Positions 45,791 through 62,218 of a DNA stretch of 64,000 bases are shown here, in pieces (the first letter of the stretch is position 1; each line of letters begins with the position of its first letter). The position numbers were made by a program, and so were the translations under genes. The notes beneath the pieces were generated by a model. That model did no database searches. It was not told the DNA's origin and worked only from the letters and a program-made list of their open reading frames with translations. Where the stretch lies: NCBI GenBank assembly GCA_034670305.1, contig JAXMNT010000031.1, positions 28,876 to 92,875 of the forward strand, read 5' to 3'. Origin of the DNA: Deltaproteobacteria bacterium (GTDB taxonomy: Bacteria; Myxococcota_A; Polyangia; Polyangiales; Houyiibacteriaceae).

Positions 45791-46660
45791 TCAGTCGTTG
45801 GTCGGCTTGGCTGCTTCCTCGAACGCGCTCAAGAACTCTGCATCCAAGAGGTCGTCGTCGGCGTACTTCGCGTCGTCAACGACATCGAAGCCGCCACTCC
45901 GCGTTACCAGCCGGTGCCGAGCTCCCACGAGTCGGCAGCTCGGTAGGTAGAACTTCTGGATGAAGGGCTCGGCGGTGCTGGCCTTCGTGAGGAACGAGAC
46001 ACCCATCGTGTTCGGAATGAACCACCGGTGCGGTCCGAACGCGCCGAACTGATGAGACACCACGTCTGAGATGAGGCGCACCGCTTTCAATGCCCTGTCT
46101 CGTGTCTCTTGCGGAAGGCTCGGATCGAAGTGAACGCTGGAGTTCCGGACCCCGTGTAGCTCGCGAAGGGCCTGCTCGGAGTCCGGTTCGAGCACGCTCC
46201 AGTTTCGGAGCACATCGATCACAAACGTCCATTTGTCGAAGGACTGCTTGTCGTAGACCTTCTTGTACTCGGGGCGGTCTTGGTAGTCGTCCCGAAGCTC
46301 CAGGATCAGGTGGTTGAGGATTCGTTCGCCGAGCGCCCCGGCTGCGGTCAGCGCCGGGTAGTAGGCGCCGATCACGAAGGCGTTCCGTGCCTCGCGCAAG
46401 AACTGGTTGTGGTAGCCGATGACCGACGTGGGGGCCGCGCCCAAGTCTCGAAAGTTCTCCGCCTTGATGTCTGCGTACGCCGAGCCGAACTGATGCTGGA
46501 GCCCGGCGAGCAACTCGGCCTTTTGCTGTGCCAGCCGAACTCTCCCCTCCTCACCCCAACCATCGTTCGGCTCCATGTTCAGCAGGTTGGCCCGGAAGTC
46601 GAAGTCCATCCGCATCACGCGGTACCGCTTCATTCCGGTGAACTCGGGTTCCACCTTCAA
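45791..46660 (-). CDS. Hypothetical protein with HEPN-like motifs (putative RNase effector)
   Basis: FLREARNAFVIGAYYPAL...GERIL and RNSSVH (RxxxxH); start overlaps the hsdS stop. Confidence 0.65.
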   Translation of the reverse strand: MKVEPEFTGMKRYRVMRMDFDFRANLLNMEPNDGWGEEGRVRLAQQKAELLAGLQHQFGSAYADIKAENFRDLGAAPTSVIGYHNQFLREARNAFVIGAYYPALTAAGALGERILNHLILELRDDYQDRPEYKKVYDKQSFDKWTFVIDVLRNWSVLEPDSEQALRELHGVRNSSVHFDPSLPQETRDRALKAVRLISDVVSHQFGAFGPHRWFIPNTMGVSFLTKASTAEPFIQKFYLPSCRLVGARHRLVTRSGGFDVVDDAKYADDDLLDAEFLSAFEEAAKPTND

Positions 46661-48141
46661 GACTTCGCTTCGTCCTTGGCTCGGCCGCGGTCCTTCCGCA
46701 TCTTCTTCGGGGCTGCAGCCTCGCGTTCGGCTCGGATGCGTTCGAGGAGGACGGAGGCTGGCTCGTCGTTCGGGTCTTGGGGAACGAGCTCGCCTCGGAA
46801 GGCCTGGGCTAGAAGAGCGCGGTTCAAGTCGGCCAAGCGACCGACGCCCGCCTCAACCTCCGGCAACACGTTGGACAACGCCAACGCCGATTCGATTCGC
46901 GGCACGAGTACCTTGAGCTCTGCCAGCGGCGGCACAGCCAGCGGCAGACGATTGAGGGCACCTTGCGTCAACTTCGCCCTTCCCGTCGTGCCCGTGAGCC
47001 ACGGCCAAACGGGGTAGTGCATGAGCGAGAAGTGAATGAATCGTGTGTCGAGTGGCGCCAATGGCCGCAGAACATGCGCGTGATTGTTCACCCAGCATTT
47101 GCCTGTGACTCGGTAGGCGATCGGTTTCGTCCGGCCATAGAAGGTCTCGTCCTCAGTCACCAACACAAGAGGCTCGTCGAAGAGCCATTGGTCAATGAGG
47201 TCTACCTGCCCGTTTGCGCCGTAGTAGGGGAACGGGCCGGGCGCCCGGTTCTTGCGCGTGACCGGGACCCGGTGTGAATCCAGGCATTCGGTTACGCACG
47301 ACACACTCGTCCAGGTCCACCCGGCGGGAAGTGAATGCTGGCCATTGAGGAATTCAGGCTCGTCCGGCTCCTTGTACTTCGACTTCCACTTGTCGTTCTT
47401 GGGGGTCTTGCCCTTTGCTTTCTGCTTGGCGAGGTAGTCCTTTTCCCAGCGGCGGCGGCGTTCGGCGCGGATACGTTCGAGGAGTTGGTCAGCCGGCTCG
47501 ACGTCGGGGTTCTGGGCGCGCCAGTCGGCTGTGAGGTCGCCTCGGAATGCGGCAGCGAGGACAGACTGGCGGAACTGCTCGAGCAGCGGCGGAACGGCGT
47601 CGAGCGCCTCCTTCGCCCGCCGACTCCGCGCCAGCAGTGCGTCGACCTTCACGGCGATGCGCCGCTGCTCGTTGAGCGGCGGAATCGGCATCTCGACCTC
47701 TGCGAGATCGCTCTTGCGAATCGACGGCACCGCTGTAGCGATCGAAAGCGGGTAGAGATCGAGTGTCTTCATGAAGAAGAGAAGGAACAGCTCATCAGCT
47801 CCGTACGGAATGACGGCGAACACGTTGTTATCCACCAGTAGATCGCGGCCGGCGATAACTCGCCGATTGAGCCGGATCGCCTCACCGATCTTCGCAAGCA
47901 ACGTGGCACCAGCCGGAAGCAGCCGAGCTTTGAGCTTCACGAGATCGGCGGCATCCACCCAATGGACCGCGCCCTCGAGGACAAGTTCGCCCGCCTTCAC
48001 CGTCGCAGAGATGTCGCGCACCTTTGCGAATGGATAGTCACCCTCTGAACGCCCCTGGAGCGCCTTCGGAAAGCCGTAACCTGAACGGATATCGGCGACA
48101 TCTCCAAGCCTAGCCTTCAGCCATCCTGGCGGGTGATTCAC
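46657..48141 (-). CDS. hsdS: Type I restriction-modification specificity subunit
   Basis: P.GW...LG, IPPLNEQRRI, LP.GW.W, VPPLAE, AFRGEL, EPA..LLERI; two TRDs with conserved spacers. Confidence 0.95.
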   Translation of the reverse strand: MNHPPGWLKARLGDVADIRSGYGFPKALQGRSEGDYPFAKVRDISATVKAGELVLEGAVHWVDAADLVKLKARLLPAGATLLAKIGEAIRLNRRVIAGRDLLVDNNVFAVIPYGADELFLLFFMKTLDLYPLSIATAVPSIRKSDLAEVEMPIPPLNEQRRIAVKVDALLARSRRAKEALDAVPPLLEQFRQSVLAAAFRGDLTADWRAQNPDVEPADQLLERIRAERRRRWEKDYLAKQKAKGKTPKNDKWKSKYKEPDEPEFLNGQHSLPAGWTWTSVSCVTECLDSHRVPVTRKNRAPGPFPYYGANGQVDLIDQWLFDEPLVLVTEDETFYGRTKPIAYRVTGKCWVNNHAHVLRPLAPLDTRFIHFSLMHYPVWPWLTGTTGRAKLTQGALNRLPLAVPPLAELKVLVPRIESALALSNVLPEVEAGVGRLADLNRALLAQAFRGELVPQDPNDEPASVLLERIRAEREAAAPKKMRKDRGRAKDEAKS

Positions 48142-49592
48142 TCAGCCGCCTCCCCGTCCACAGCCGGCGTCTCCAGCAACTCACTCAGCGCCTCGAGTTC
48201 CGCCATCGCGCTCTGGAGATGCCCGATAATCTCGGCCGCGATCTCGTCCGGCTCGCCGAGGTCTTCCTGGCTCTGGGCGTCGTCGTCCCGCAGCCATGAG
48301 ATGTCGAGGTTGTCGCCGCGCTTCTGGATCTCCTCGCGGGTGAAGCAGCGGAAGCGCCCCTCCTCGCCTTGGTCCTTCCGTTTGGAGGTCCCGTCGGTCT
48401 TGTTTCCGAACGCCTTCTCGAACTCCGCGAAGTGCGCCCGCGTGAACGGGGTCCGCTTGCCGAATTTCGGCATGTTGGTGCGGAGGTCGTAGATCCAGAC
48501 GGCTTTGGTATTGCCCTCGTCCTTCTTGCCCCGCTGAAAGAAGAGCACGTTGGTCTTCACGCCTTGGGCGTAGAAGATCCCAGTCGGCAGGCGGAGGATG
48601 GTGTGCAGGTTGCACTTGTCCATGAGGTCCTGCCGGATCTTCGTGCCGGTGTTCTCCTCGAACAGCACGTTGTCCGGAAGCACGACGGCCGCGCGACCAC
48701 CGGGCTTCAGCCCACGGTAGATGTGCTGGAGGAAGGCGAGCTGCTTGTTGCTCGTCGGGAACGTGAAGTCGTCCCGCGTGGGGCCGCCGCCGCCCTTCTT
48801 CGTACCGAAGGGCGGGTTGGTCAGCACGATGTCGGACTTCGGAAGGCCGGACCCGAGGGACGAGAGGCTGTCGCCGCGTTCGAAGTTGCCGCGGATGTCG
48901 TGGAGCATCAGGTTCATCAACATGAGCCGATGCGTCTCGGGCACGAGCTCCACGCCGACGAACGCCTCGTTCGCCATGAAGTTCTGGAGCGCCTCGTTTA
49001 GCTCGAAGTAGTCGTCGGTCTGCGCCCGCATGTAGCGGTCCGCCGCAATGAGAAAACCCCCCGTGCCAGCAGCAGGGTCTTGAATCACTTCGCCCGGCTG
49101 TGGCTTCACCAGACCGACCATGCAGTCGATGAGCGCGCGGGGCGTGAAGTACTGGCCGGCGCCCGACTTCTTCTCGCCTGCGTTCTTCTCGAGGAGCCCC
49201 TCGTACAGGTCCCCGAGCCCCTCTTGTTTGGCGTCGTACCAGTCGAGCGCGTCGATGTCCGTGATCAGCTTCTTCAACGTCACGGGCTTGCGGATCGCGG
49301 TGGCTGCGTCCGCGTAGATCGCGAGCACGATGCCTTCGGTCTTGGTGCCAAGGTGCAGGAGGAGCTCGCGGTAGAAGACGTGCTGGTCGGGGCCCGTCTT
49401 GCCAACGAGGTCTTCCCAGCGATGACCCTCCGGGAGTGCGTACCGCCACCGCTGCTCACGCGTCTCCTGCTCCATCTTGAGGAAGAGCAGCCAGGTCAGC
49501 TCCGTGACGTACTGGTGGTACGTGATGCCGTCGTCGCGGAGGACGTCGCAGAGACGCCAGAGCTTTTGAACGATGTCGTGGGTGGTGGTCAT
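48138..49592 (-). CDS. hsdM: Type I restriction-modification methyltransferase (EcoKI-like, m6A)
   Basis: KLWRLCDVLRDDG, GQYFTPR, DPAAGTGGFL, NPPF. Confidence 0.96.
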   Translation of the reverse strand: MTTTHDIVQKLWRLCDVLRDDGITYHQYVTELTWLLFLKMEQETREQRWRYALPEGHRWEDLVGKTGPDQHVFYRELLLHLGTKTEGIVLAIYADAATAIRKPVTLKKLITDIDALDWYDAKQEGLGDLYEGLLEKNAGEKKSGAGQYFTPRALIDCMVGLVKPQPGEVIQDPAAGTGGFLIAADRYMRAQTDDYFELNEALQNFMANEAFVGVELVPETHRLMLMNLMLHDIRGNFERGDSLSSLGSGLPKSDIVLTNPPFGTKKGGGGPTRDDFTFPTSNKQLAFLQHIYRGLKPGGRAAVVLPDNVLFEENTGTKIRQDLMDKCNLHTILRLPTGIFYAQGVKTNVLFFQRGKKDEGNTKAVWIYDLRTNMPKFGKRTPFTRAHFAEFEKAFGNKTDGTSKRKDQGEEGRFRCFTREEIQKRGDNLDISWLRDDDAQSQEDLGEPDEIAAEIIGHLQSAMAELEALSELLETPAVDGEAAE

Positions 49593-50494
49593 GCGGACGT
49601 CGTTTCTGTCACGTCGGAGGCAGCCTCGGCCAGCTCTTCTTCGATCGCTTTGAGGCTCTTGCCGGAAGCGTCGCGCCAGGCTTCGCGGCCGTTGTACGCG
49701 CCGCCGGCGAGGATGGCGGCCGCAGCCGACGGGCTCGTAAAGAGCACATCCCGCGTCAACCGGATTGCGCCACCTTCGATCACCAACGAATCATCCGCGA
49801 GCAGTTCCTCTCGAAGCGTGCGGTAGCCCTTGCCGAGGGAGTCGCGCACTTTGGCGTCGCCCTTCGAACCTTCGAACACAACGAAGCCTTCGTCGGTCGA
49901 GGCTCCGGTGGCGTCCACCCGACCCTTGCCGATGCTGAACCGGAGCGTCCGCTTGGCCAGCGGCGCTTCGGCTCCTCCGTTGCTGGGCGCGATGGGCTGA
50001 AGGGCGTTGAAGCCGAGCGAACCCAGAAGGACCGCGAGGGGTCCGAGGAACTCCTCCATCGCGTCCCGTTCGGAGCGAGGCAGCGCTGGGGCCTGGGGAG
50101 CGTTGCCGTTCATCAACTCCACCCGCTTGGTGCGCGTGGCGATGGTGATGAGCCTGGCTTCCAGGTACTTCACGTGGGCCTTGGTGAGGTTCTCATCCTT
50201 GCTCGTGAAGAACACCACGCGGCTCCAGAAGTCCTTGGTTCGAAGGTGGTTCTGAAGTCGTGCGAGCACGTTCTCGGCTTCGCCGAGATAGAGCGCCGGC
50301 CGACCGGACTCCGCCTCACCGAAGAGGAAGTACACACCTGGTCGTTGGCTCTCGTTCCAGTCCGAGAGTTCGTTGATACGGCTACGTGGGCAGACGATGG
50401 CCTGTCCCGTCCAGTTCACGAGCTCCGCGTGACGGATGCCGCTCGGCGTCCCGTCGGCGAGGTAGATGCGAATGGTCTTGCCGAAGGTGGTCAT
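49589..50494 (-). CDS. GIY-YIG nuclease with C-terminal DUF4357 (RAMA-like) domain
   Basis: GKTIRIYL.DG, PGVYFL..LYLGEAEN..RL..H, KAHVKYLE, FTSPSAAA....NG...W. Confidence 0.85.
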   Translation of the reverse strand: MTTFGKTIRIYLADGTPSGIRHAELVNWTGQAIVCPRSRINELSDWNESQRPGVYFLFGEAESGRPALYLGEAENVLARLQNHLRTKDFWSRVVFFTSKDENLTKAHVKYLEARLITIATRTKRVELMNGNAPQAPALPRSERDAMEEFLGPLAVLLGSLGFNALQPIAPSNGGAEAPLAKRTLRFSIGKGRVDATGASTDEGFVVFEGSKGDAKVRDSLGKGYRTLREELLADDSLVIEGGAIRLTRDVLFTSPSAAAAILAGGAYNGREAWRDASGKSLKAIEEELAEAASDVTETTSA

Positions 50495-50545
50495 GCCGAT
50501 GGGTCTACGGGTTCAGGGTGGCGCTGTCGACGGATCCGAGCACCT

Positions 50546-53500
50546 TCACGCGCCCTCCTTCCACACCGCTTCACCGATGCGTCCGAGCACGTCTTCGAGC
50601 TTGCCGTTGAAGATCTTGTTGAGGCGGGTGAAGCCTCCGTGGTCCGTGAAGGGACTTCGGTCCAAGGCCTCGCGGTCGACGATGGTGCTGGCCTTCATTT
50701 GATCGGCGATGCGCTTGAGCCACTTGCGCTGGTGAACGTTCCAGGCCTGCGAGCTGAGGATGGCGGTCAAGGCGCGGTCCACCCGCTCGGGGTACGGCAC
50801 CAGCGCGTCGCCGAGCGCGGCCTGCCGGATGAAACCGACGATGCTCGCGGCGATGTCGACGTTGCTCTGCTGGCGCCACGCCGTGCGCAGGCTTGGTTCG
50901 TCGTAGCCGGCCTTGTCGAGCGCGAGCTTCAACTCCTTGAGCTGCGCGCGGGTGAGGTCGCGCGGGCGCTGCGTCACGAGCAACAGCGCCGGGATCTCGT
51001 TCAGGTTCTTCTTGATGAACTCGCCGAACGCTTTGAGGTAGGCGTCGGGGCGGGTGCGGTCTTTGCCGTATCCCCGCGCGACCTCGACGACCTCGTCGAC
51101 GTGGTCGGAGATGAAGATGACGTCGCGGGTCGCGATCTTCCGATCGAGGAAGTCGGCCAGGTCGGGTTTCGCCTCGAACTGCTTTGCCGCGTCCGTCGAG
51201 GTGCCTTTGCGAAGCTTCTCGAGAAACTCCTCCACCGAGTCTCCGGCGAGCTGCTTGAACTGCGTGGCGAGGTCGCCGGTGAGCATGGCCTTCTTCCGGT
51301 GGAGCTTCGCGAGCAGCTCCCCGAGCACCCAATCCCGCGCCTCGGTGTTCTCGAGCGAGGTGAGCTCAGCCACCAGCTCGGCGTACGTGGTCTTTCGGGT
51401 CGTGGCGACGGGCTTCATCTGCGACACGTTCTTGAGCGCCGCGTAGAGGTCGACCGCGTCGTAGATGCGGAAGACCTCCTTGCCGATCTCCGGGCACAAC
51501 CGAGTCGCGCGGCCGAGCATCTGCTCGTAGAGGATTCGAGAGCCCACCCGCCGGAGGAACACGAGGTTGGTGATGGCTGGCACATTGATGCCCGTGGTGA
51601 GCAGATCGACGGTGACGGCGATGGCGGGCTTCTGCTCGTTCTTGTAGCGCCGGATGAGTTCCCGCGGCCGGTCGCACGCGCCGGTGATCTTCTGAATCCT
51701 CGCCGCGTCCACCCCGCCGAGAAAGTCCGCATAGGTCTCCCGCAAGACCCGGACGAACAGGTCGCAGTGCCGGTCGTTCGTGCAGAACACCAACGTCTTC
51801 TCAGGGCCTTCCGGGTCGATGTGTTGGACGAGGACGTCGCAGACCGCGCGGTTGAAACTCTCGGTCACCACGTCCCGGTTGAACCCGTCGATCTCGATTT
51901 TGACTTCGTCGGGCAGCAGGAAGAGTTGTTCCGACTTGGTCACCGGCGAGTAGGTCGCGACCTCTTCTCCAGCCTTCCAGACGATCCCGCTTTGGGAGAG
52001 GGCGGTCACGATGCGGATCGGCGGTTCGTGATCGACCAAGTAACCGTCGATCACCGCTTCGGGGTAGCTGTAGGTGTAGACGGGTTCGCCGAAGATCTGT
52101 TGGGTGTGCAGCGCCGGCGTGGCGGTGAGCCCGATCTTCATGGCGTCGAAGTAGTCCAGCACACGGGTGTACTTGGAGACGTAGTCGGTCTCGTCTCGGA
52201 ACGTCATCTCGACGTCGCTCATGCCCGCGTCGAGGGTGTAGCCGCGGTGGCTCTCATCGATGACGATGCAGTCGTAGCTGTCCACGGCGGGCGGGTCGTC
52301 CTTGTTGAGGACTTGGCTCACCAGACTTTGGATGGTCGCGATGTGCAGGCGGGTGTCGGTCTCAGGGCCTTCTTTGCTGTCGAGACCTTTGAGATCGAAG
52401 ATCTCCACGAAGGTCTTCATCTGATCGACCTTCACGTCTTTGAATGCGCCCTCTGCCTGCTCACCAAGGGCAGAGCGGTCGACCACGAAGAGGATGCGGT
52501 TGAACCGGTCGGCTTTGAGCAGCCGATAGACCAGTCCAATGCAAGTCCGGGTCTTTCCAGTCCCCGTAGCCATCGCGAGCAGGGCGGTGCGCTTGCCGTT
52601 CACGATGGCGCGCTCGACCTCGCGGATCGCCTGCTCTTGGTAGTAGCGCAGGCCAAGCCGCTCGACCGGTTCGTCCTTCAGCTTTTGGTGGGCGAGTTCG
52701 TGGTCTTGCGCGAGGAGTTTCGAGAGCCCCTCGGGGCTGTGCCACCCGACGAGCGCGCGCGGCATGTTGTCGGGCCGACGAACATCCTGAAACCAGATGC
52801 CGCTCTCTTCGATGATCTGTTTCATGAAGGGGCGGCCATTGGTTGCAAAGAGGAACGGGACCTTGAACTCCCCCCAAGGACCGCCGGCCGCTCGAACGTC
52901 CTTGCCGAACGTCACGCCACTTGCGTATCGCTTCGACTGGTCGAGCGCACCAACGACACGGCGGCGCCCGCGCTTGGCTTCCACAATCGCGATGAACTCC
53001 AGCCCCACGAACAACGCGTAGTCGGCCGGACCATTCTTGGTGGGCCACTCCGCAATCGCGAGGTTCTTCCCTTTCTGAGGGCGGCTCCCCTTGCTGTGTC
53101 GGAGCTGGACCGAGTCCGCTTGCCAGCCGGCCTCGCGGAGCTGGAGGTCGATGAGTTCGCGTGTCTCGGCCTCCGTCAGGTCCAGGTTCGCGCCAGCGGT
53201 CGCGGCCTGTTCCACGAGGCGCTGCACGCCGGCCTGCTGTTCGGCCGGAGGTTGCGCGGCCACGGTTGCTTGGAGCGCCGTGACTTCGTCGTCGCGCGCA
53301 GCCGCGAGCTCATCGAAGGCGTCTTCGGTCTCTTCCAGCTTGGCCCGCAGAACCGCGACCTGCTTCTCGTAGTCTTCCCGGAGTTCCCGCTCGAAGTCGG
53401 CGACCTCCTGGGCCTCGGCGCTGACTTCCGCCGCCTTGGCGGCCTCGTCTCGGAGCTGTTGCAGCTCCGCCGCCATCTCGGCCGTGACGTCCTTGGGCGC

Positions 53501-53929
53501 CGCTGGCGGAATGAACGGCCCGGCCTTGTAGCTCGGGGGCAGCTTTCCGAGCGTGGTGAGCACGGCGACGCTGAGCCGGCGCGACATCTTGAGTTGATGA
53601 AGCGCGTCGCCAACGGTGCCCAAGCCATCGTGAACGGCCTGGTTGCCCGCCTTGCGCAGCCCGTGGAACAGCTGCGCCACGTCCGGGGCGAGAAGCCCGC
53701 GGGACCGCAGGTCGTTGATGAGGTCGTGCTGCTTCTCGGTGGGCAGGAGCTGGAGCCCGGCGTGGGCGGCAAGCTCGCGCGCGAGCCTCTCTCCCAGCAA
53801 TCGAAGCCGCATCAGGCACGCGACCGGGTCGATGGTGAACTGCATTTCGGCCTGAGCGCCGAGTACGACCAAGGAGGGATCCAGGTACTTGAGGACCCCG
53901 AAGTTGCGAGACTTTTCACCCCCGTTCAC
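50546..53929 (-). CDS. hsdR: Type I restriction endonuclease subunit R (EcoKI-like) with N-terminal DUF4145-like region
   Basis: ADY.L...IVEAKR nuclease motif, MATGTGKT, DESHRG, GLTATP, EQMLGRATR. Confidence 0.96.
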   Translation of the reverse strand: MNGGEKSRNFGVLKYLDPSLVVLGAQAEMQFTIDPVACLMRLRLLGERLARELAAHAGLQLLPTEKQHDLINDLRSRGLLAPDVAQLFHGLRKAGNQAVHDGLGTVGDALHQLKMSRRLSVAVLTTLGKLPPSYKAGPFIPPAAPKDVTAEMAAELQQLRDEAAKAAEVSAEAQEVADFERELREDYEKQVAVLRAKLEETEDAFDELAAARDDEVTALQATVAAQPPAEQQAGVQRLVEQAATAGANLDLTEAETRELIDLQLREAGWQADSVQLRHSKGSRPQKGKNLAIAEWPTKNGPADYALFVGLEFIAIVEAKRGRRRVVGALDQSKRYASGVTFGKDVRAAGGPWGEFKVPFLFATNGRPFMKQIIEESGIWFQDVRRPDNMPRALVGWHSPEGLSKLLAQDHELAHQKLKDEPVERLGLRYYQEQAIREVERAIVNGKRTALLAMATGTGKTRTCIGLVYRLLKADRFNRILFVVDRSALGEQAEGAFKDVKVDQMKTFVEIFDLKGLDSKEGPETDTRLHIATIQSLVSQVLNKDDPPAVDSYDCIVIDESHRGYTLDAGMSDVEMTFRDETDYVSKYTRVLDYFDAMKIGLTATPALHTQQIFGEPVYTYSYPEAVIDGYLVDHEPPIRIVTALSQSGIVWKAGEEVATYSPVTKSEQLFLLPDEVKIEIDGFNRDVVTESFNRAVCDVLVQHIDPEGPEKTLVFCTNDRHCDLFVRVLRETYADFLGGVDAARIQKITGACDRPRELIRRYKNEQKPAIAVTVDLLTTGINVPAITNLVFLRRVGSRILYEQMLGRATRLCPEIGKEVFRIYDAVDLYAALKNVSQMKPVATTRKTTYAELVAELTSLENTEARDWVLGELLAKLHRKKAMLTGDLATQFKQLAGDSVEEFLEKLRKGTSTDAAKQFEAKPDLADFLDRKIATRDVIFISDHVDEVVEVARGYGKDRTRPDAYLKAFGEFIKKNLNEIPALLLVTQRPRDLTRAQLKELKLALDKAGYDEPSLRTAWRQQSNVDIAASIVGFIRQAALGDALVPYPERVDRALTAILSSQAWNVHQRKWLKRIADQMKASTIVDREALDRSPFTDHGGFTRLNKIFNGKLEDVLGRIGEAVWKEGA

Positions 53930-55514: not shown

Positions 55515-55579
55515 GATGAAAATGATTTGCAACATCGACGCGGGCTGCTAGAAGTCGGTTCATGAAAGTCATTTTCAAC
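55515..55579 (+). promoter_or_regulatory. Two Fur-box-like 19-bp AT-rich palindromes
   Basis: GATGAAAATGATTTGCAAC (55515-55533) and CATGAAAGTCATTTTCAAC (55561-55579) upstream of or overlapping the start of an iron-uptake-type operon. Confidence 0.7.
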
Positions 55580-57091
55580 AAGGGTGCGGCTGTCACCTTG
55601 GTTTTCTTCTCTCTGGTGGCTTGTGGCGACGACGATGGGTCGGTCGACGCGGGGCCGGGGATGGACGCGGCGATCGATGCGTTTGCGGACGATGCGCCTG
55701 CGACCGACGCGGCGGTGGACGCCATCGCGTGCGAAGCGGTGGCCAACACGCCGGCTTACGTGTTCGAGCGCGAGGGCGTCTCGACGGCGAGCTACGCAGG
55801 GCAGAGCTTTCGCCATCTGCTGATCGATCGGTTGAGCGGTTTCATCGGCGGTCTGAGCGACCGGATCGACGCCGACGGGGCAGGGCGCTTCGACGAGAAA
55901 GAAGAGCTGCTGGCTTCGTTCGACTTCTACTTCCGGTTCGATGGCGCGGCGAACGGCATGGAGCCGCATGGGCTGCAGACCGAACCCGAATCCGCCCAGA
56001 CCCTCTGGGACGACATCGCGTCTGGCCGCAACTTGCTCGACAAGACGGCCGGACAAGACGACTCGACCGACCACGCAGACTGGGACGACGGCGCCTTCGC
56101 CGGGTGGACGACGTTCGATGGCGAAGCGGTCACCTCTCCGGTGCAGCTCATCGACAGCCTGCTCGGTGCGCTCGCCGACAACGGCGTGGCGCGTGCGAAC
56201 GGTGAGCAGCCGCGCGGTCCGAACGACGAAGCGCTTCCGGTGTACGTCACCCCCGAAGGCCTCGACCTGCAACAGCTGCTGCAGAAGGTGCTCTTGATGA
56301 GCGTGACCTTCAGCCAGGCCACCGACGACTACCTGGACGACGACGTGGACGGCAAGGGGCTGCTCACCTCCAACGCGCTCGGCGAGGATGCCTACACGCC
56401 GCTCGAACACGCCTGGGACGAGGCCTTCGGCTACTTCGGCGCACCCGCCGACCACCCGGACTACACCGCGGACGAGTTGGCTTCGAGCGGGGACGGCCGG
56501 GCCGACTGGCAGGGCGCCCACGACACGAACGCGGACTGCCGCATCGACCTGGTCTCGGAGTACGCGTGGGGCGCGGTGGTCAACGCCGCCAAACGCGACC
56601 GTGGTTCCACGACCGGCACGACCTTCGGCACGGACGCGTTCGAAGCGTTCTTGGCCGGCCGTGCGCTCATCGCAGGGGCCGATGGTGCACTCGACGAGGG
56701 CACGCTCGCCATGCTGCGGACCCACCGCGACGCCGCGGTGCGCAACTGGGAGAACGCGATCGCCGCGACGGTGGTGCACTACATCAACGACGTGCTCGCC
56801 GACATGGACGCGATGGGCACGGACGACTACTCGTTCACCGACCACGCGAAGCACTGGTCGGAGCTGAAGGGCTTCGCGATCGGGCTGCAGTTCAACCCGC
56901 GCTCGCCTCTGCACGCGGGCGCTGGCGAAGCGACCCAGTTCCTCGTGTTGCACGGGTACCTCGGGGACCTACCGGTGCTCGAAGCGGCTGGCGAAGAAGC
57001 GCTGGCGGCCTATGCCTCGGCCCTGGCCGATGCGCGCACCCTCTTGCAGGACGCGTACGGCTTCGATCCGGCCGACGTCGCGGCCTGGTAG
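55562..57091 (+). CDS. DUF4856-like acidic lipoprotein
   Basis: Lipobox LVAC; Y.F.R.G.S.SY.GQ.R, QLLQK.L, EHAWDEAFGYFG, HYIN, HWSELKGF. Confidence 0.75.
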   Translation: MKVIFNKGAAVTLVFFSLVACGDDDGSVDAGPGMDAAIDAFADDAPATDAAVDAIACEAVANTPAYVFEREGVSTASYAGQSFRHLLIDRLSGFIGGLSDRIDADGAGRFDEKEELLASFDFYFRFDGAANGMEPHGLQTEPESAQTLWDDIASGRNLLDKTAGQDDSTDHADWDDGAFAGWTTFDGEAVTSPVQLIDSLLGALADNGVARANGEQPRGPNDEALPVYVTPEGLDLQQLLQKVLLMSVTFSQATDDYLDDDVDGKGLLTSNALGEDAYTPLEHAWDEAFGYFGAPADHPDYTADELASSGDGRADWQGAHDTNADCRIDLVSEYAWGAVVNAAKRDRGSTTGTTFGTDAFEAFLAGRALIAGADGALDEGTLAMLRTHRDAAVRNWENAIAATVVHYINDVLADMDAMGTDDYSFTDHAKHWSELKGFAIGLQFNPRSPLHAGAGEATQFLVLHGYLGDLPVLEAAGEEALAAYASALADARTLLQDAYGFDPADVAAW

Positions 57092-57102
57092 CAAGGACCC
57101 CC

Positions 57103-58284
57103 ATGACCCGCTCCCTCTCCTCCACGGTTTGTCTCCTCGCGTGCGTGCTGATGTCTTGCGACAGCGGCACCACGCCGCCCGATCCCACCGGCGCGGCGCG
57201 GCTGGAAGCGGCAGGTGCGATGGCGCAGGTCGTGCGGGCCCGGCTCGACGATGCGACGACGGCGGTGTCTGCGCTCACCACCGCCGTCGACGCTTGGGCG
57301 GCGGCGCCGACCGACGCGTCGCTGCGCACCGCGGCCCAAGACCAGTGGCTCGCGACGATGCTGGCGTGGCAACACCTGGAGCCGATGCAAGTCGGACCGG
57401 CGGCCGCGATGGACCTCGGGGTCGGCGGGCAGGATCTGCGAGACCGCATCTACTCCTGGCCGATCGTCAATGCGTGCCGGGTCGACCAGGAGCTCGCGGA
57501 AGGCGCGTACACGGACGCGGATGCGTTCGCGGCCGAAGCGATCAATGTGCTCGGGCTCGACGCGCTCGAGTACCTGCTCTTCGTCGATTCGACGACCAAC
57601 GCGTGTGCACCGAACTCGTCGCTCAACCTCGACGGGAGCTGGGACGCGATCGTGGCCGAGCTGCCCACCCGGCGCGCGGCCTACGCAGCCACGCTCACGA
57701 CGCTCCTGAACCGCGACTTGGCCACGTTGCGGGCGGCGTGGGATGGCACCGATGGGTTCTTGCTCGAAGTGCAGTCCGCGGGCACCGGGAGTGCGCTCTT
57801 CTCGTCCGCGCAGGATGCGCTCAATGCGATCAGCGACGCGCTCTTCTACGTCGACAAGGAGACCAAGGACATGAAGGTCGCCGGTCCGGCTGGGATCTCG
57901 CCGGACTGTCTGACCGCGCCGTGTCCCGAGCTGCGTGAGTCCCAGTACGCGAACGCCTCGATCCGGTTCGTGCACGCCAACCTGCTCGGCACCCAAGAGA
58001 TGATGCTCGGCGCCGGTGGCGCAGAGCCGCGTGGGTTCCTGTGGCTGCTCGAGGAGCTCGACCAGGCGGCGCTCGCCGCCGAACTGCGCACGACGTTGCA
58101 GGCGGCGATCGACCAGGCCGCAGCACTCGGTGAGCGCACGGTGGAAGAGGTCTTGGCCGAGAGCGCGACCGGGTTGATGGCGCTCTACGAAGCGATCCGG
58201 GTGTTCACCGAGTTGCTCAAGACCCAGTTCGTGACCGTGCTCGATCTCGACCTGCCGAACCGCGCCGAAGGCGACGACGACTGA
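57103..58284 (+). CDS. Imelysin family (iron-regulated) lipoprotein
   Basis: Lipobox LMSC; AWQ..E....GP, IYSWP, GLDALEYLLF, terminal EGDDD. Confidence 0.85.
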   Translation: MTRSLSSTVCLLACVLMSCDSGTTPPDPTGAARLEAAGAMAQVVRARLDDATTAVSALTTAVDAWAAAPTDASLRTAAQDQWLATMLAWQHLEPMQVGPAAAMDLGVGGQDLRDRIYSWPIVNACRVDQELAEGAYTDADAFAAEAINVLGLDALEYLLFVDSTTNACAPNSSLNLDGSWDAIVAELPTRRAAYAATLTTLLNRDLATLRAAWDGTDGFLLEVQSAGTGSALFSSAQDALNAISDALFYVDKETKDMKVAGPAGISPDCLTAPCPELRESQYANASIRFVHANLLGTQEMMLGAGGAEPRGFLWLLEELDQAALAAELRTTLQAAIDQAAALGERTVEEVLAESATGLMALYEAIRVFTELLKTQFVTVLDLDLPNRAEGDDD

Positions 58285-59660
58285 TGCTGCGCTGGCGAAC
58301 CATCGAAGAGAAGCTCGAACGCCCGGTCGACGCGTCGTCGCTCGGGGTGTTCCGGGTGCTCTTCGGTGTCGTCGCGCTGATCGGGGCGCTGCGGTTCTTC
58401 GCCAACGGGTGGATCGACCGCTTCTTCGTTCAGCCGACCTACTTCTTTCAGTACTGGGGCTTCGAGTGGGTGCAGCCGCTGTCCGAGCCGGCGATGTACG
58501 CCGCGTTCGGCGTGCTGGTGATCAGCGCACTCTTGATCACGGTTGGTCTCTTCTACCGCTTCGCCATCGCGATCTACTTCGTCGTCTTCACCTACGTGGA
58601 GCTCATCGACGTCACCAACTACCTGAACCACTACTACCTGGTCAGCCTGCTCGCGTTCTGGATGTGTTTCATGCCGCTCGGGCGCGTGCATGGAATGGAC
58701 GCGAGACTTCGAGGGGCGCTGACTCGGTTGCCTCGGTGGATGCTCGGCAGCCTTCAATTGCAGGTCGCGTGCGTGTACGTGTTCGCGGCGCTGGCCAAGG
58801 TCAGCGGTGACTGGCTGCTCGCGGCCCAGCCACTCGATCTCTGGCTCTCGGCCCGGGCCGATGCATTCCCGGTCTCTTGGATTGCCGGCATCGATTGGGC
58901 GCCGATCGCGATGAGCTGGGCGGGCTTCTTGTTCGACCTCACGATTGTCTTCTGGCTCTCGTGGCGGCGGACCCGCGCGGTGGCCTATGCGGTGTTGCTC
59001 GCGTTCCACTGGATGACGCACTTGCTCTTCGACATCGGCATGTTCCCGCTGATCATGAGCGTCGCGGCGACGGTGTTCTTCGATGCGTCTTGGCCGCGGC
59101 GGTGGCTGGCTCTGCGACGCAGCCGCGGGCACGGGCACGGGCACGGGCACGAAGGGCAAGGGCACGGGCACGGGCAAGGGCTTCCTCGATGGGCGCGGCT
59201 GGCCGTGGGGGGGGCGTTGGCCACGGTCGCGCTCGCGCAGGTGGTGGTGCCGTTGCGCAGCCACCTCTACGAAGGCGATGTGCTCTGGCACGAACAGGGC
59301 ATGCGCTGGAGCTGGCGGGTGCTCTGCCGCGAGAAAGCCGGGAGTGTGTCGTACCGGGTCCGCACGCCGGGCCGCGCGACCGAGATGCGTGTGCCGCCCT
59401 CCCGCTACCTCACCGCGCATCAGGAGCGGCAGATGGCGGGGCAGCCGGATTTGATCGTGCAGCTCGCGCACCACATCGCGGAGGAGTTCCCTGGCAGCGA
59501 GGTGCGGGTCGACGCGGTGGTGTCGCTCAACGGTCGCCCCCCGGCCCGGCTCGTCGATCCCGAAGTCGACCTCGCCCAGACGCAGGCGGGGCTCTCGGCC
59601 GCTTCGTGGATCCTCCCTCGACCTGAAACGCAGCCTCCGCGGCTGGCGAGAAACCGATGA
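58284..59660 (+). CDS. HTTM-domain vitamin K-dependent gamma-carboxylase-like protein
   Basis: RPVDASSLGVFRVLFG, YLNHYYL, YVFAALAK..DWL, FH......IGMFP, SW, SLNGR...LVDP.VDL, WILP. Confidence 0.88.
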   Translation: MLRWRTIEEKLERPVDASSLGVFRVLFGVVALIGALRFFANGWIDRFFVQPTYFFQYWGFEWVQPLSEPAMYAAFGVLVISALLITVGLFYRFAIAIYFVVFTYVELIDVTNYLNHYYLVSLLAFWMCFMPLGRVHGMDARLRGALTRLPRWMLGSLQLQVACVYVFAALAKVSGDWLLAAQPLDLWLSARADAFPVSWIAGIDWAPIAMSWAGFLFDLTIVFWLSWRRTRAVAYAVLLAFHWMTHLLFDIGMFPLIMSVAATVFFDASWPRRWLALRRSRGHGHGHGHEGQGHGHGQGLPRWARLAVGGALATVALAQVVVPLRSHLYEGDVLWHEQGMRWSWRVLCREKAGSVSYRVRTPGRATEMRVPPSRYLTAHQERQMAGQPDLIVQLAHHIAEEFPGSEVRVDAVVSLNGRPPARLVDPEVDLAQTQAGLSAASWILPRPETQPPRLARNR

Positions 59661-62218
59661 CCTGGAACCTGCGGCTTTGGCTCAGTGCGTGTGTGTGCTT
59701 CGTTGCGGCGGGTGCAGTCCAGGTGTCGGCCCAGGACGGGGGCGTGCCGGACGCGGGCGTGTCGGATGCCGGCGTGGCGGACGGTGGCGTGCCGGATGCC
59801 GGTGACGCGGGCGACGCGGGTGACGGTGATGCGGGGGCCGGCGCCGAAGCCGACGCCGACGCCGATGCCGAAGCCGATGCCGAAGCCGATGCCGAAGCCG
59901 ACGCCGAAGCCGATGCCGACGCCGATGCCGATGCCGAGGCCGAGGCCGACGCCGATGCCGAGGCCGATGCCGACTCCGACTTCGTGCTCGATGCCGACTC
60001 CGACTTCGCGCTCGAGGACGAGGACGACTTCGTGCTCGAAGACGAGGATGAGGGTGGCGGGCAGACCGTTGGAGCAGCGGCTGCGCTCTCGCCCGAGGCG
60101 GTGGCGGAGCAGGACCTTCGGCTCGACGAAGTGGAGGTCGTGGGGCGGCGGCGGCGCGATCCGTTGCGGAGTGGCGGTTCGAGCGCGCATCTGGACGAAG
60201 CGCAGCTCGACACGCTCGACTACGACGACCCGCACCAGCTCTTGCTCCAGGTGCCAGGCGTCTACATCCGGACCGAAGACGGGTTCGGGCTGCGGCCGAA
60301 CATCGGGCTGCGCGGCACCAACCCCGAGCGTTCGAAGAAGGTCACGCTGCTCGAGGACGGAGTGCTCTTTGGGCCCGCGCCCTACGCCGCGCCGGCCGCC
60401 TACTACTTTCCACTCATGGCGCGCATGACCGGCGTCGACGTCTACAAGGGGCCGGGCGCACTGCTCTACGGGCCGCAGACCATCGGCGGTGCGATCGACT
60501 TCCGGAGCCGCGACGTGCCGACCCGGGCCGAGGGGGCGTTCGATGTCGCGTTTGGCCGCTTCTCTTCGCGCCGCCTGCATCTGCACTGGGGCACGTCGAA
60601 CCGGCACGGCGGCATCCTCTTCGAGGGGCTCGACGTGGCGAGCGACGGCTTCAAGGAGATCGACGGCAGCGATCGCTCCACCGGCTTTCATCGCAGCGAC
60701 TTCCGCGTGCGCGCGTTCCTGCAGAACGACCCGGATTCGAGCACCTACCACCGGGTGGATCTGCGGGTCGGCGTGGGGCGCGAGCGGAGCAACGAGACCT
60801 ACCTCGGGCTCACCGATGCCGACTATGCCGCGAACCCCAACCGCCGCTACGCCGCGAGCGAGCGGGACAACATGCGCTGGTGGCGGACCGAAGCGCGGCT
60901 GACCTGGCGGGCCGAAGTCGGCGACCACCTGCGCTTCGTCACCGATGTGTACCGGCACGACTTCGACCGGTCGTGGTTGCGGTTCAACCGGTTCGGGGAC
61001 GAGACGATCAGCAGCCGAGACGTGTTGCTCGCACCGACCGGCCGGCGCGCGATCTACTACGACCTGCTCACTGGTGCGCAGGACACCTCGAGCCCCGACG
61101 AGCGCATCGCCCTCATCGACAACCACCGGCAGTACGTCTCCCAGGGCATTCAGACCCGAGCGCGTTTCGAGCGCACCCGTGGCGGCTTGCGGCACCTGCT
61201 CGAAGCCGGGGCGCGGCTGCATCACGACTCGGTCGACCGCGAACACACCGAACACTTCTTCGCGATGACCTCCGGGTCGCTGGTCGACTTGAACGACGCC
61301 TCGGTCGCGACCGACAACTTCGACAGCGCGTTCGCGACCAGCCTCTACGGGGTGTACGGCCTGACGTTCTGGAAGTTCACCGTCACGCCGGGCGTGCGCG
61401 CCGAGCTCGTGCGTACGAACCGAGACGACGACCTCACCGGCCTGTCGATGGACAGCTTCGATGCGACGGTGCTCCCAGGCGTCGGACTCACCTACGCGGT
61501 CCGCCGCGATCTGGATCTGGTCGCGGGCGTGCATCGTGGCTACAGCCCGGTCGGCCCTGGACAGGAAGAACGTGCGGATCCGGAGACCTCGATCGCGTAC
61601 GAGCTCGGCGCCCGCTACCAACGCCCGGCCCGCGGGCGCCTGCTCGAGGTGATGGGGTTCGTGAACGACTACTCCAACCTGCTCGGTCAGTGTGCGTTCA
61701 GCACCGGCTGCGATGCGATGCGGCTCGACGAGCAGTACAACGGCGGACAGGTGGTGGTGTTCGGGGTGGAAGCGGTCGGCACGCTGCGCATCGACTTCGG
61801 GGACATCGAGGTCCCACTGCGCGCGACCTACACCTACACCGATTCCCGGTTCCGCGACGCGTTCGAGGTCGCCGATCCGACGCTTGGCGAAGTCGTGCCC
61901 GGCGACCGGCTGCCGTACATCCCGATGCACCAGGCGCAGCTCCAGCTCGGGGTGGAGCACGAACGGGCCGGCGGCACACTCTCGGCGACCTATGTCGGGG
62001 AGATGCGCGAGCAGGCGGGGCAGGGCGACGAGGGCGAGCGGACCGAGCGCTACCTGGGGCTCGACGCGAACGTCTGGGTGCGGGTTCACGAGCGGGTCCG
62101 TGCCTACGTTCGGGGGGAGAACCTCCTGAACCAGCAGCCGATCACGAGCCGCCGACCGTTCGGCGCCCGCGGCAACCGCCCGCTCTCGGTCTGGGCGGGC
62201 GTGAAGGTCGATTTTTGA
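59657..62218 (+). CDS. TonB-dependent receptor (FecA-like) with long acidic N-terminal extension
   Basis: Signal peptide; LDEVEVVG TonB box; VPGVYIR.EDGFGLRPNIGLRG, LLEDG, VYKGP..LLYGP..IGG; NLLN; terminal Phe. Confidence 0.93.
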   Translation: MTWNLRLWLSACVCFVAAGAVQVSAQDGGVPDAGVSDAGVADGGVPDAGDAGDAGDGDAGAGAEADADADAEADAEADAEADAEADADADADAEAEADADAEADADSDFVLDADSDFALEDEDDFVLEDEDEGGGQTVGAAAALSPEAVAEQDLRLDEVEVVGRRRRDPLRSGGSSAHLDEAQLDTLDYDDPHQLLLQVPGVYIRTEDGFGLRPNIGLRGTNPERSKKVTLLEDGVLFGPAPYAAPAAYYFPLMARMTGVDVYKGPGALLYGPQTIGGAIDFRSRDVPTRAEGAFDVAFGRFSSRRLHLHWGTSNRHGGILFEGLDVASDGFKEIDGSDRSTGFHRSDFRVRAFLQNDPDSSTYHRVDLRVGVGRERSNETYLGLTDADYAANPNRRYAASERDNMRWWRTEARLTWRAEVGDHLRFVTDVYRHDFDRSWLRFNRFGDETISSRDVLLAPTGRRAIYYDLLTGAQDTSSPDERIALIDNHRQYVSQGIQTRARFERTRGGLRHLLEAGARLHHDSVDREHTEHFFAMTSGSLVDLNDASVATDNFDSAFATSLYGVYGLTFWKFTVTPGVRAELVRTNRDDDLTGLSMDSFDATVLPGVGLTYAVRRDLDLVAGVHRGYSPVGPGQEERADPETSIAYELGARYQRPARGRLLEVMGFVNDYSNLLGQCAFSTGCDAMRLDEQYNGGQVVVFGVEAVGTLRIDFGDIEVPLRATYTYTDSRFRDAFEVADPTLGEVVPGDRLPYIPMHQAQLQLGVEHERAGGTLSATYVGEMREQAGQGDEGERTERYLGLDANVWVRVHERVRAYVRGENLLNQQPITSRRPFGARGNRPLSVWAGVKVDF

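Follow-up and report, generated by a model that had tools for sequence, protein, structure and literature searches.

A predicted Fur-regulated operon of Myxococcota and Bacteroidota in which a tail-bearing imelysin accompanies a truncated GGCX-family membrane protein

We describe a four-gene operon in a 64,000-nucleotide stretch of contig JAXMNT010000031.1 from a Deltaproteobacteria bacterium (assembly GCA_034670305.1; the whole stretch is called the window below). The genes, all on the + strand, encode a DUF4856 lipoprotein, an imelysin-like lipoprotein, an HTTM/VKGC membrane protein related to the human vitamin K-dependent carboxylase GGCX, and a TonB-dependent receptor. The best explanation of the operon, judging from sequence, is a four-part, Fur-repressed and TonB-dependent iron-acquisition module, predicted to consist of the receptor, the acidic DUF4856 lipoprotein, a B-type imelysin lipoprotein and a GGCX-type enzyme of the inner membrane. 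The operon is not peculiar to the window, but is an annotated cluster that is widespread in two phyla, and of the partners of the HTTM protein the one to which it is most tightly linked is an imelysin that ends in a conserved DxD-COOH tail. Vitamin K-dependent carboxylation is textbook animal biochemistry, and the operon offers a concrete setting for the role of the bacterial HTTM/VKGC homologues, with Fur as the predicted regulator and iron limitation as the predicted condition. It also supplies a few candidate substrates next door and a specific candidate site, the DxD-COOH tail, and it bears on the imelysin proteins, which have long been linked to iron without a mechanism. A literature search, with supplementary tables outside its range, found nothing on the function of the cluster, and its genes were mentioned only in a table of the Riemerella regulon.

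Structure, conservation and regulation of the operon

The DUF4856 gene (55562..57091; 509 amino acids (aa); Pfam PF16148, E 2.3e-15) is followed after an 11-nucleotide gap by the gene for an imelysin of the GxxxxE variant type (57103..58284; PF09375, E 5.3e-33), whose length of 393 aa is counted from the ATG following an AAGGA-like spacer. The imelysin gene overlaps by one nucleotide (TGATG) with that of the HTTM/VKGC inner-membrane protein (58284..59660; 458 aa; PF05090, E 7.5e-73, and PF22777, E 3.3e-36), and this in turn overlaps by four nucleotides (ATGA) with the receptor gene (59657..62218; 853 aa; Plug PF07715, E 1.1e-10). Open reading frames (ORFs), Pfam families and junction sequences confirm what a sequence-only reading of this DNA had described, namely four tightly spaced genes of which the last three overlap at their stop and start codons. 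Net charges of -61, -32 and -62 mark the DUF4856 protein, the imelysin and the receptor, respectively, as strongly acidic.

To survey Myxococcota, we took the 61 loci returned by the HTTM query together with the best 80 of 453 relatives found with a profile, which gave 109 distinct loci; all HTTM relatives in this set come from Myxococcota-type records. An imelysin gene lies directly upstream of the HTTM gene in 87 of the 94 loci with room for it, and a receptor gene lies directly downstream in 74 of 91, with eight further Myxococcaceae-type loci having the receptor upstream on the opposite strand. DUF4856 was detected by tblastn in 52 of 87 loci. For Bacteroidota, a distant HTTM representative (38% identity) gave more than 595 matches, from which 80 loci were kept; they come from Flavobacteriaceae, Cytophagales and Balneolales and have the same gene order as the window. 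Among these 80 loci, 75 have a DUF4856 match and 76 a receptor match directly downstream, and Pfam found all four families in the one locus checked. The analysis of neighbourhood conservation that the sequence-only reading had called for thus finds the same gene order recurring in Myxococcota and Bacteroidota. The VKGC lumenal-domain family is present in 49 of 201 sampled genomes of the window's phylum (39 of 143 genera) and in none of 14 control genomes, and the HTTM/VKGC family comprises 1436 clusters at 50% identity that match at E up to 1e-30.

Two Fur-like boxes stand ahead of the genes, at 55518..55536 and at 55558..55576, the second overlapping the ATG at 55562. Both agree with the 19-base E. 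coli Fur consensus used for the scan at 14 of 19 positions. They are the sole positions in the window that score at least 13/19, and both are among the six positions that reach at least 14/19 in the whole 7.93-Mb assembly, which encodes two Fur-family proteins. Among the 52 Myxococcota loci that extend over the first gene and the DNA ahead of it, 47 carry a Fur box (at least 13/19) within -300..+60 of the estimated start of the first gene, and the density of boxes near this start is 4.50 per kb, as against 0.059 per kb in the remainder of the loci. The best sites from 46 Myxococcota loci yield a clade consensus of classical Fur type, and box 2 agrees with every position of this consensus that does not vary. 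Several orthologues resemble the window in having a Fur box encoded within the first five codons. For the Bacteroidota loci we used the Riemerella type of Fur box given in PMC5609570, and 69 of 75 loci carry it upstream, at 2.98 per kb versus 0.28 per kb outside, while the E. coli-type consensus, used as a control, shows no enrichment there.

In Riemerella anatipestifer, the four adjacent genes RAYM_09779-09794 are tabulated among the Fur/iron-regulated genes, with the annotations TonB-dependent receptor, vitamin K-dependent gamma-carboxylase, imelysin lipoprotein and hypothetical protein (PMC5609570). This is a likeness to the window operon in another phylum, with the same four annotations in adjacent genes, and the match rests on annotation names and on the flavobacterial loci, the table passage carrying no column headings; the function of these genes is not studied in that paper. 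Taken together, the results support a Fur-type, iron-regulated, TonB-dependent uptake operon, with regulation predicted from the boxes. The sequence-only reading, which had proposed a metal-uptake operon behind two Fur-like boxes, is supported in this respect, because Fur boxes are kept at the orthologous promoters of two phyla and a cluster with the same annotations appears in the Riemerella regulon table (PMC5609570).

The imelysin tail and the HTTM protein

The AlphaFold 2 (AF2) model of the imelysin has a mean confidence (pLDDT) of 91.1, and its Foldseek matches are IrpA, ICMP, IPPA, EfeO, Algp7 and EfeM, with the best TM-score (0.82) for IPPA. Structures 4ecg, 7xrx and 3pf0 match at E 2e-8 to 1.4e-7 and EfeO at E 1.7e-3. 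The GxHxxE motif of the family is present without its His, reading G-L-D-A-L-E in the window, and orthologues vary at this position (D, A, T, S, F); the window imelysin fits a GxxxxE variant that has already been described (PMC3143127). Four Cys are invariant among the orthologues. Model confidence falls after the last helix (residues 355-379), so that the tail that follows (58240..58281, + strand) is flexible in the model. It closes with D-x-D-COOH, an end that all 92 Myxococcota orthologues share, GDND being its form in 76 of them; of 76 Bacteroidota orthologues 75 have it, as D-[ASNT]-DGD, the overall identity being about 22%.

We asked how the tail is associated with the HTTM gene by collecting all imelysin-family matches in 30 related genomes. 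We took 64 matches, leaving out the two of the window's own genome, and 62 of them were complete ORFs with room downstream. The tail is present in 30 imelysins with an HTTM gene next to them and in 12 without one, whereas none of the 20 tailless imelysins has HTTM next to it. In three operons with two or three imelysins, only the copy that adjoins the HTTM gene bears the tail. By these counts the HTTM protein is, among its partners, most tightly linked to the tail-bearing imelysin. This link is new here, and the tail was absent from the features listed by the sequence-only reading. Of the 12 exceptions, four have an HTTM gene close by in a rearranged order and eight have none in the stretch examined. 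We searched five of the exception genomes whole and found HTTM elsewhere in three and no PF22777 match in two; because these two have a tailed imelysin and no detectable HTTM, the role of the tail is not strictly HTTM-dependent. Imelysins with the DxD tail thus make up a clade of their own, and HTTM is their usual, though not invariable, partner.

Some relatives carry a hybrid operon composed of one or more imelysins, a di-haem oxidoreductase (PF06537), a tail-bearing imelysin and HTTM (L230, 3593-8677, and also L231 and L232). This arrangement links HTTM to the classical imelysin-peroxidase system.

The HTTM protein aligns to residues 47-505 of human GGCX, with E 1.1e-32 by phmmer and E 2.6e-65 for a profile of 30 orthologues. 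The PF05090 match, which identifies the HTTM transmembrane domain, spans positions 2-259 of the 259 in the profile, and the protein is made up of the GGCX transmembrane domain, the linker and PBD-1 only, its end aligning at about human residue 505. Residue roles were taken from a cryo-electron microscopy (cryo-EM) preprint on human GGCX, and conservation was counted over 150 divergent family representatives. The catalytic base K218 corresponds to Lys172 of the window protein and is Lys in 149/150 representatives. In the human enzyme, Asn159 and His160 form hydrogen bonds with the substrate carboxyl and His160 supports carbanion formation (cryo-EM preprint); the window counterparts of this pair are N115 and H116, and each is kept in 149/150. 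Of the residues lining the naphthoquinone pocket, V210, W223, F286, F294 and F299 are identical in the window and M401 is replaced by Val (5/6 kept), with W223, F286 and F299 found in 150/150 representatives and F294 in 143/150. H287 (149/150) and D222 are also identical in the window, and the tail-tunnel residues A214 and G259 are kept. The Cys99-Cys450 disulfide pair of GGCX is absent, and K217, which couples the cap to PBD-2 in GGCX, is Ala.

Homologues of MenA (192 bits, cut-off 102) and of VKOR are present in the window's genome, which gave no match to MqnA/D. The MenA homologue agrees with the menaquinone background assumed in the sequence-only reading. That reading had also listed GGCX motifs in the protein, including the Lys that matches K218, and these do align with the human sequence; misaligned catalytic residues, which it had named as a point that would tell against it, were not found, the equivalents of K218, N159 and H160 being aligned and near-invariant. 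By alignment, the HTTM protein belongs to the GGCX family in a truncated form, which has kept the catalytic site and is without the propeptide clamp and Tyr395. We read it as a quinol-dependent enzyme that is predicted to be active and still to bind a carboxylate, and it probably still makes a carbanion.

A His/Gly-rich loop that follows the HTTM domain and precedes the last helix (59130-59183, aa 283-300) was considered as a conserved metal site and rejected because it is specific to the window, the orthologues having a loop of variable length there.

Proposed mechanism and alternatives

The HTTM protein may use menaquinol, and probably O2, at the periplasmic face of the membrane, a location expected because it is homologous to the lumenal active site of GGCX. 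The groups found here to carry the operon are aerobic. The enzyme would deprotonate the carbon next to a carboxylate and then add CO2. Its likeliest substrate would be an acidic stretch of the co-encoded imelysin, the C-terminal tail first, while this lipoprotein is still at the inner membrane, and the added carboxyls would create a malonate-like and stronger Fe(III)-binding site that could serve iron capture or hand-over at the receptor. That the partner imelysin is the substrate, tail first, and that the extra carboxyls make such a site is a tentative reading, which we regard as quite possible. The narrower proposal, in which Asp and/or Glu residues of the tail are carboxylated to give a protein-tethered polycarboxylate iron chelator feeding a dedicated receptor, is doubtful. 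If it were true, it would be the first bacterial pathway of vitamin K-dependent protein carboxylation and the first metal-uptake system built on gamma-carboxyglutamate (Gla) or carboxy-Asp, present in hundreds of aerobic Myxococcota and Bacteroidota. More generally, if the enzyme modifies a partner, metal-binding sites would be built there by a novel route, one from which Gla chemistry might have evolved, and if no partner is modified, the operon is still a widespread and unstudied iron system of marine and soil bacteria and of fish and bird pathogens.

Several observations weigh against carboxylation of the imelysin. The conserved residues of the tail are Asp, not Glu, and the Glu that precedes them is kept in only 48 of 92 orthologues. 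Among 42 imelysins that bear the tail, eight lack an HTTM gene in the stretch examined, and in two genomes that are 95-96% complete (loci L271 in G226 and L253 in G120) a tailed imelysin stands beside a TonB-dependent receptor with PF22777 nowhere in the genome. Related genomes are not independent samples, and therefore the counts of tail and HTTM describe the data and do not constitute a test. In the HTTM protein, PBD-2 and the Arch domain (human residues 508-730) are absent; human GGCX needs both for its propeptide clamp and for activity, which drops sharply when the Arch is lost (cryo-EM preprint). Human Y395, the third hydrogen-bond donor to the Glu carboxylate (cryo-EM preprint), is Met in the window and is F in 57, M in 37, Y in 28 and H in 13 of the 150 representatives, and two other contacts of the Glu pocket are lost in the window (N158 to Leu and R436 to Gln). 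The protein must, on this alignment, recognise its presumed substrate in another way than human GGCX does.

The main rival is a redox device, which we consider somewhat unlikely. The HTTM protein would carry out only the quinol half-reaction (deprotonation, oxidation or epoxidation) with no protein carboxylated, and electrons or reactive oxygen chemistry would be directed at iron held by the imelysin, so that Fe(III) is reduced or Fe(II) oxidised; the protein would thereby play the part of EfeB or of the di-haem peroxidases in other imelysin operons. Those peroxidases provide the analogy (PMC3143127). The missing PBD-2, Arch domain and Tyr395 are in keeping with such a role, and so is a Haem_bd gene (PF14376) for a small membrane-anchored CxxCH protein, which adjoins the cluster in 18/80 Bacteroidota loci (e.g. 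L118, 2839-3318) and was found in 0/109 Myxococcota loci and not in the window's genome. A carboxylase orthologue of Leptospira has reportedly epoxidase but no carboxylase activity. However, the HTTM gene shares its operon with a di-haem peroxidase (PF06537) in the relatives G041, G023 and G145, and the existence of operons carrying both means that HTTM is not simply a peroxidase substitute, which weakens the idea of a plain replacement. Asn159 and His160, which serve carboxylate binding and carbanion support in GGCX, are retained almost without exception, which also speaks against the redox account, and no conserved Cys or haem motifs were found in the alignment of HTTM orthologues. A small-molecule substrate is a further and quite unlikely alternative, in which HTTM would carboxylate or activate a periplasmic organic acid or carboxylate-type iron chelator, the modified molecule would be taken up or recycled via the receptor, and the lipoproteins would be binding proteins. 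MloH of malonomycin biosynthesis sets a precedent, as a bacterial HTTM-domain enzyme reported to carboxylate the aspartyl unit of a polyketide-peptide intermediate; it differs, by a comparison of descriptions only, in being fused to a DUF5819-like region and in belonging to a polyketide-peptide pathway. The missing propeptide clamp and the Arg that is frequent at the positions of human G396 (127/150) and D400 (88/150) are also consistent with a small substrate, as is the similarity of the receptor to FecA, the receptor for ferric dicitrate, which is its best match among solved structures, in the plug region only (E 2.6e-19). Against this, the score of the receptor for the FecA family is far under the cut-off (79.7 versus 1100 bits), we found no biosynthetic genes in or adjoining the operon, and the association of the imelysin tail with HTTM suggests that the partner is a protein.

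The HTTM protein could instead be a non-catalytic permease or membrane anchor that takes the metal of the imelysin across or at the inner membrane, because it is the sole inner-membrane protein encoded in the operon. No genes for an inner-membrane permease, an ABC transporter or TonB-ExbBD were found in the operon or adjoining it, and the His/Gly-rich loop of the window protein would suit a role of this kind. We nevertheless regard this as extremely unlikely, given that the catalytic and quinone-pocket residues are near-invariant across the 150 divergent representatives and that the loop is a window-specific feature in a region of variable length. A function with a metal other than iron or in stress defence, with the boxes bound by a Fur-family paralogue such as Zur or PerR, is also very unlikely. 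The two Fur-family genes of the genome leave room for such a paralogue, and in Leptospira both peroxide and iron limitation elicit a response of imelysin operons (PMC7567364), but the clade consensus of the boxes is of the classical Fur type.

By its predicted parts, the system would combine an imelysin module with TonB-dependent uptake under the control of Fur, and we compared it with known systems that share some of these parts. The nine-helix HTTM domain, the linker and the first lumenal lobe of human GGCX are shared with the window protein, whereas the window enzyme sits in a predicted iron-regulated uptake operon without a known propeptide-bearing substrate. Operons with imelysin, di-haem peroxidase and imelysin (the P. 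aeruginosa PA4370-PA4373 type, with IrpA, ICMP and IPPA) are regulated by Fur, as is predicted for the window, and encode two acidic helical lipoproteins of which one is without the His of GxHxxE, as in the window. The likeness extends to relatives that combine imelysinA, di-haem peroxidase, imelysinB and HTTM in one operon. The window operon departs from this type in lacking a peroxidase, in encoding DUF4856 where the first imelysin would stand, and in adding the TonB-dependent receptor and HTTM. With EfeUOB it has in common the M75/imelysin domain fold of EfeO and the context of iron uptake, but neither the EfeU permease nor the EfeB peroxidase is among the four genes or their neighbours, the cupredoxin domain is missing as well, and an outer-membrane receptor is used instead.

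The DUF4856 lipoprotein, the receptor and neighbouring genes

The DUF4856 protein has a lipobox (LVAC), an acidic disordered linker and an all-helical body, and its AF2 model is all-helical with a pLDDT of 86.6. It scores 56.9 bits against a cut-off of 22.3, covering only positions 127-260 of the 358 in the profile, while the flavobacterial counterpart matches DUF4856 over its full length (E 1.4e-149). The idea that DUF4856 is a hidden imelysin was examined by hhalign, which found only the signal peptides of the two alike, and a Foldseek search of the model against solved structures gave nothing at E up to 0.001. The VIA-align hits were unspecific helical bundles with a top Z of 8.0, ICMP coming at rank 35 (Z 4.6), and no solved structure emerged as a convincing relative. 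The alignment of orthologues contains many invariant Asp, Glu and His residues, and these invariant acidic and His motifs look like metal ligands. The orthologues end in a conserved N-[VL]-x-x-W (window 57050-57088).

The receptor has a plug domain and a beta-barrel, which assigns it to the TonB-dependent receptors, and its orthologues match PF00593. Its match to TIGR01783 (E 8.9e-30, aligned over residues 180-828) reaches 103.9 bits and stays below the cut-off of 223.5, so that it falls outside this siderophore-receptor subfamily, as it does outside the FecA family. An N-terminal extension separates the signal peptide from the plug; read off the translation, it consists of about 120 aa of low-complexity acidic (D/E-A)n sequence (59735..60106, + strand). 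The extensions of orthologues are often acidic or Pro-rich and vary in make-up, with Asp-Ser or Glu-Pro repeats for example, and one of them contains 36 Asp and 1 Glu (start codons were estimated crudely). Because of this variation, we rejected the extension as a conserved Glu substrate and as a general feature. Further Fur-like boxes occur just 3' of the receptor gene in L014, L019, L022 and L041, which suggests that another iron-regulated gene may follow the receptor in these loci.

The operon is flanked upstream by type I restriction-modification genes of opposite orientation and downstream by a gene for a PAS histidine kinase, and the four genes therefore form a self-contained unit. The restriction-modification system directly upstream (45791-53929, - strand) comprises hsdS (46657-48141), hsdM (48138-49592), a gene for a DUF4357 protein (49589-50494) and hsdR (50546-53929). 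In other genomes, a few close homologues of the HTTM protein (49-53% identity) also occur alone, without imelysin or receptor (L016, L018, L058 and L071), and in L018 HTTM has genes for an FGE-sulfatase-like protein and a zinc-type alcohol dehydrogenase beside it.

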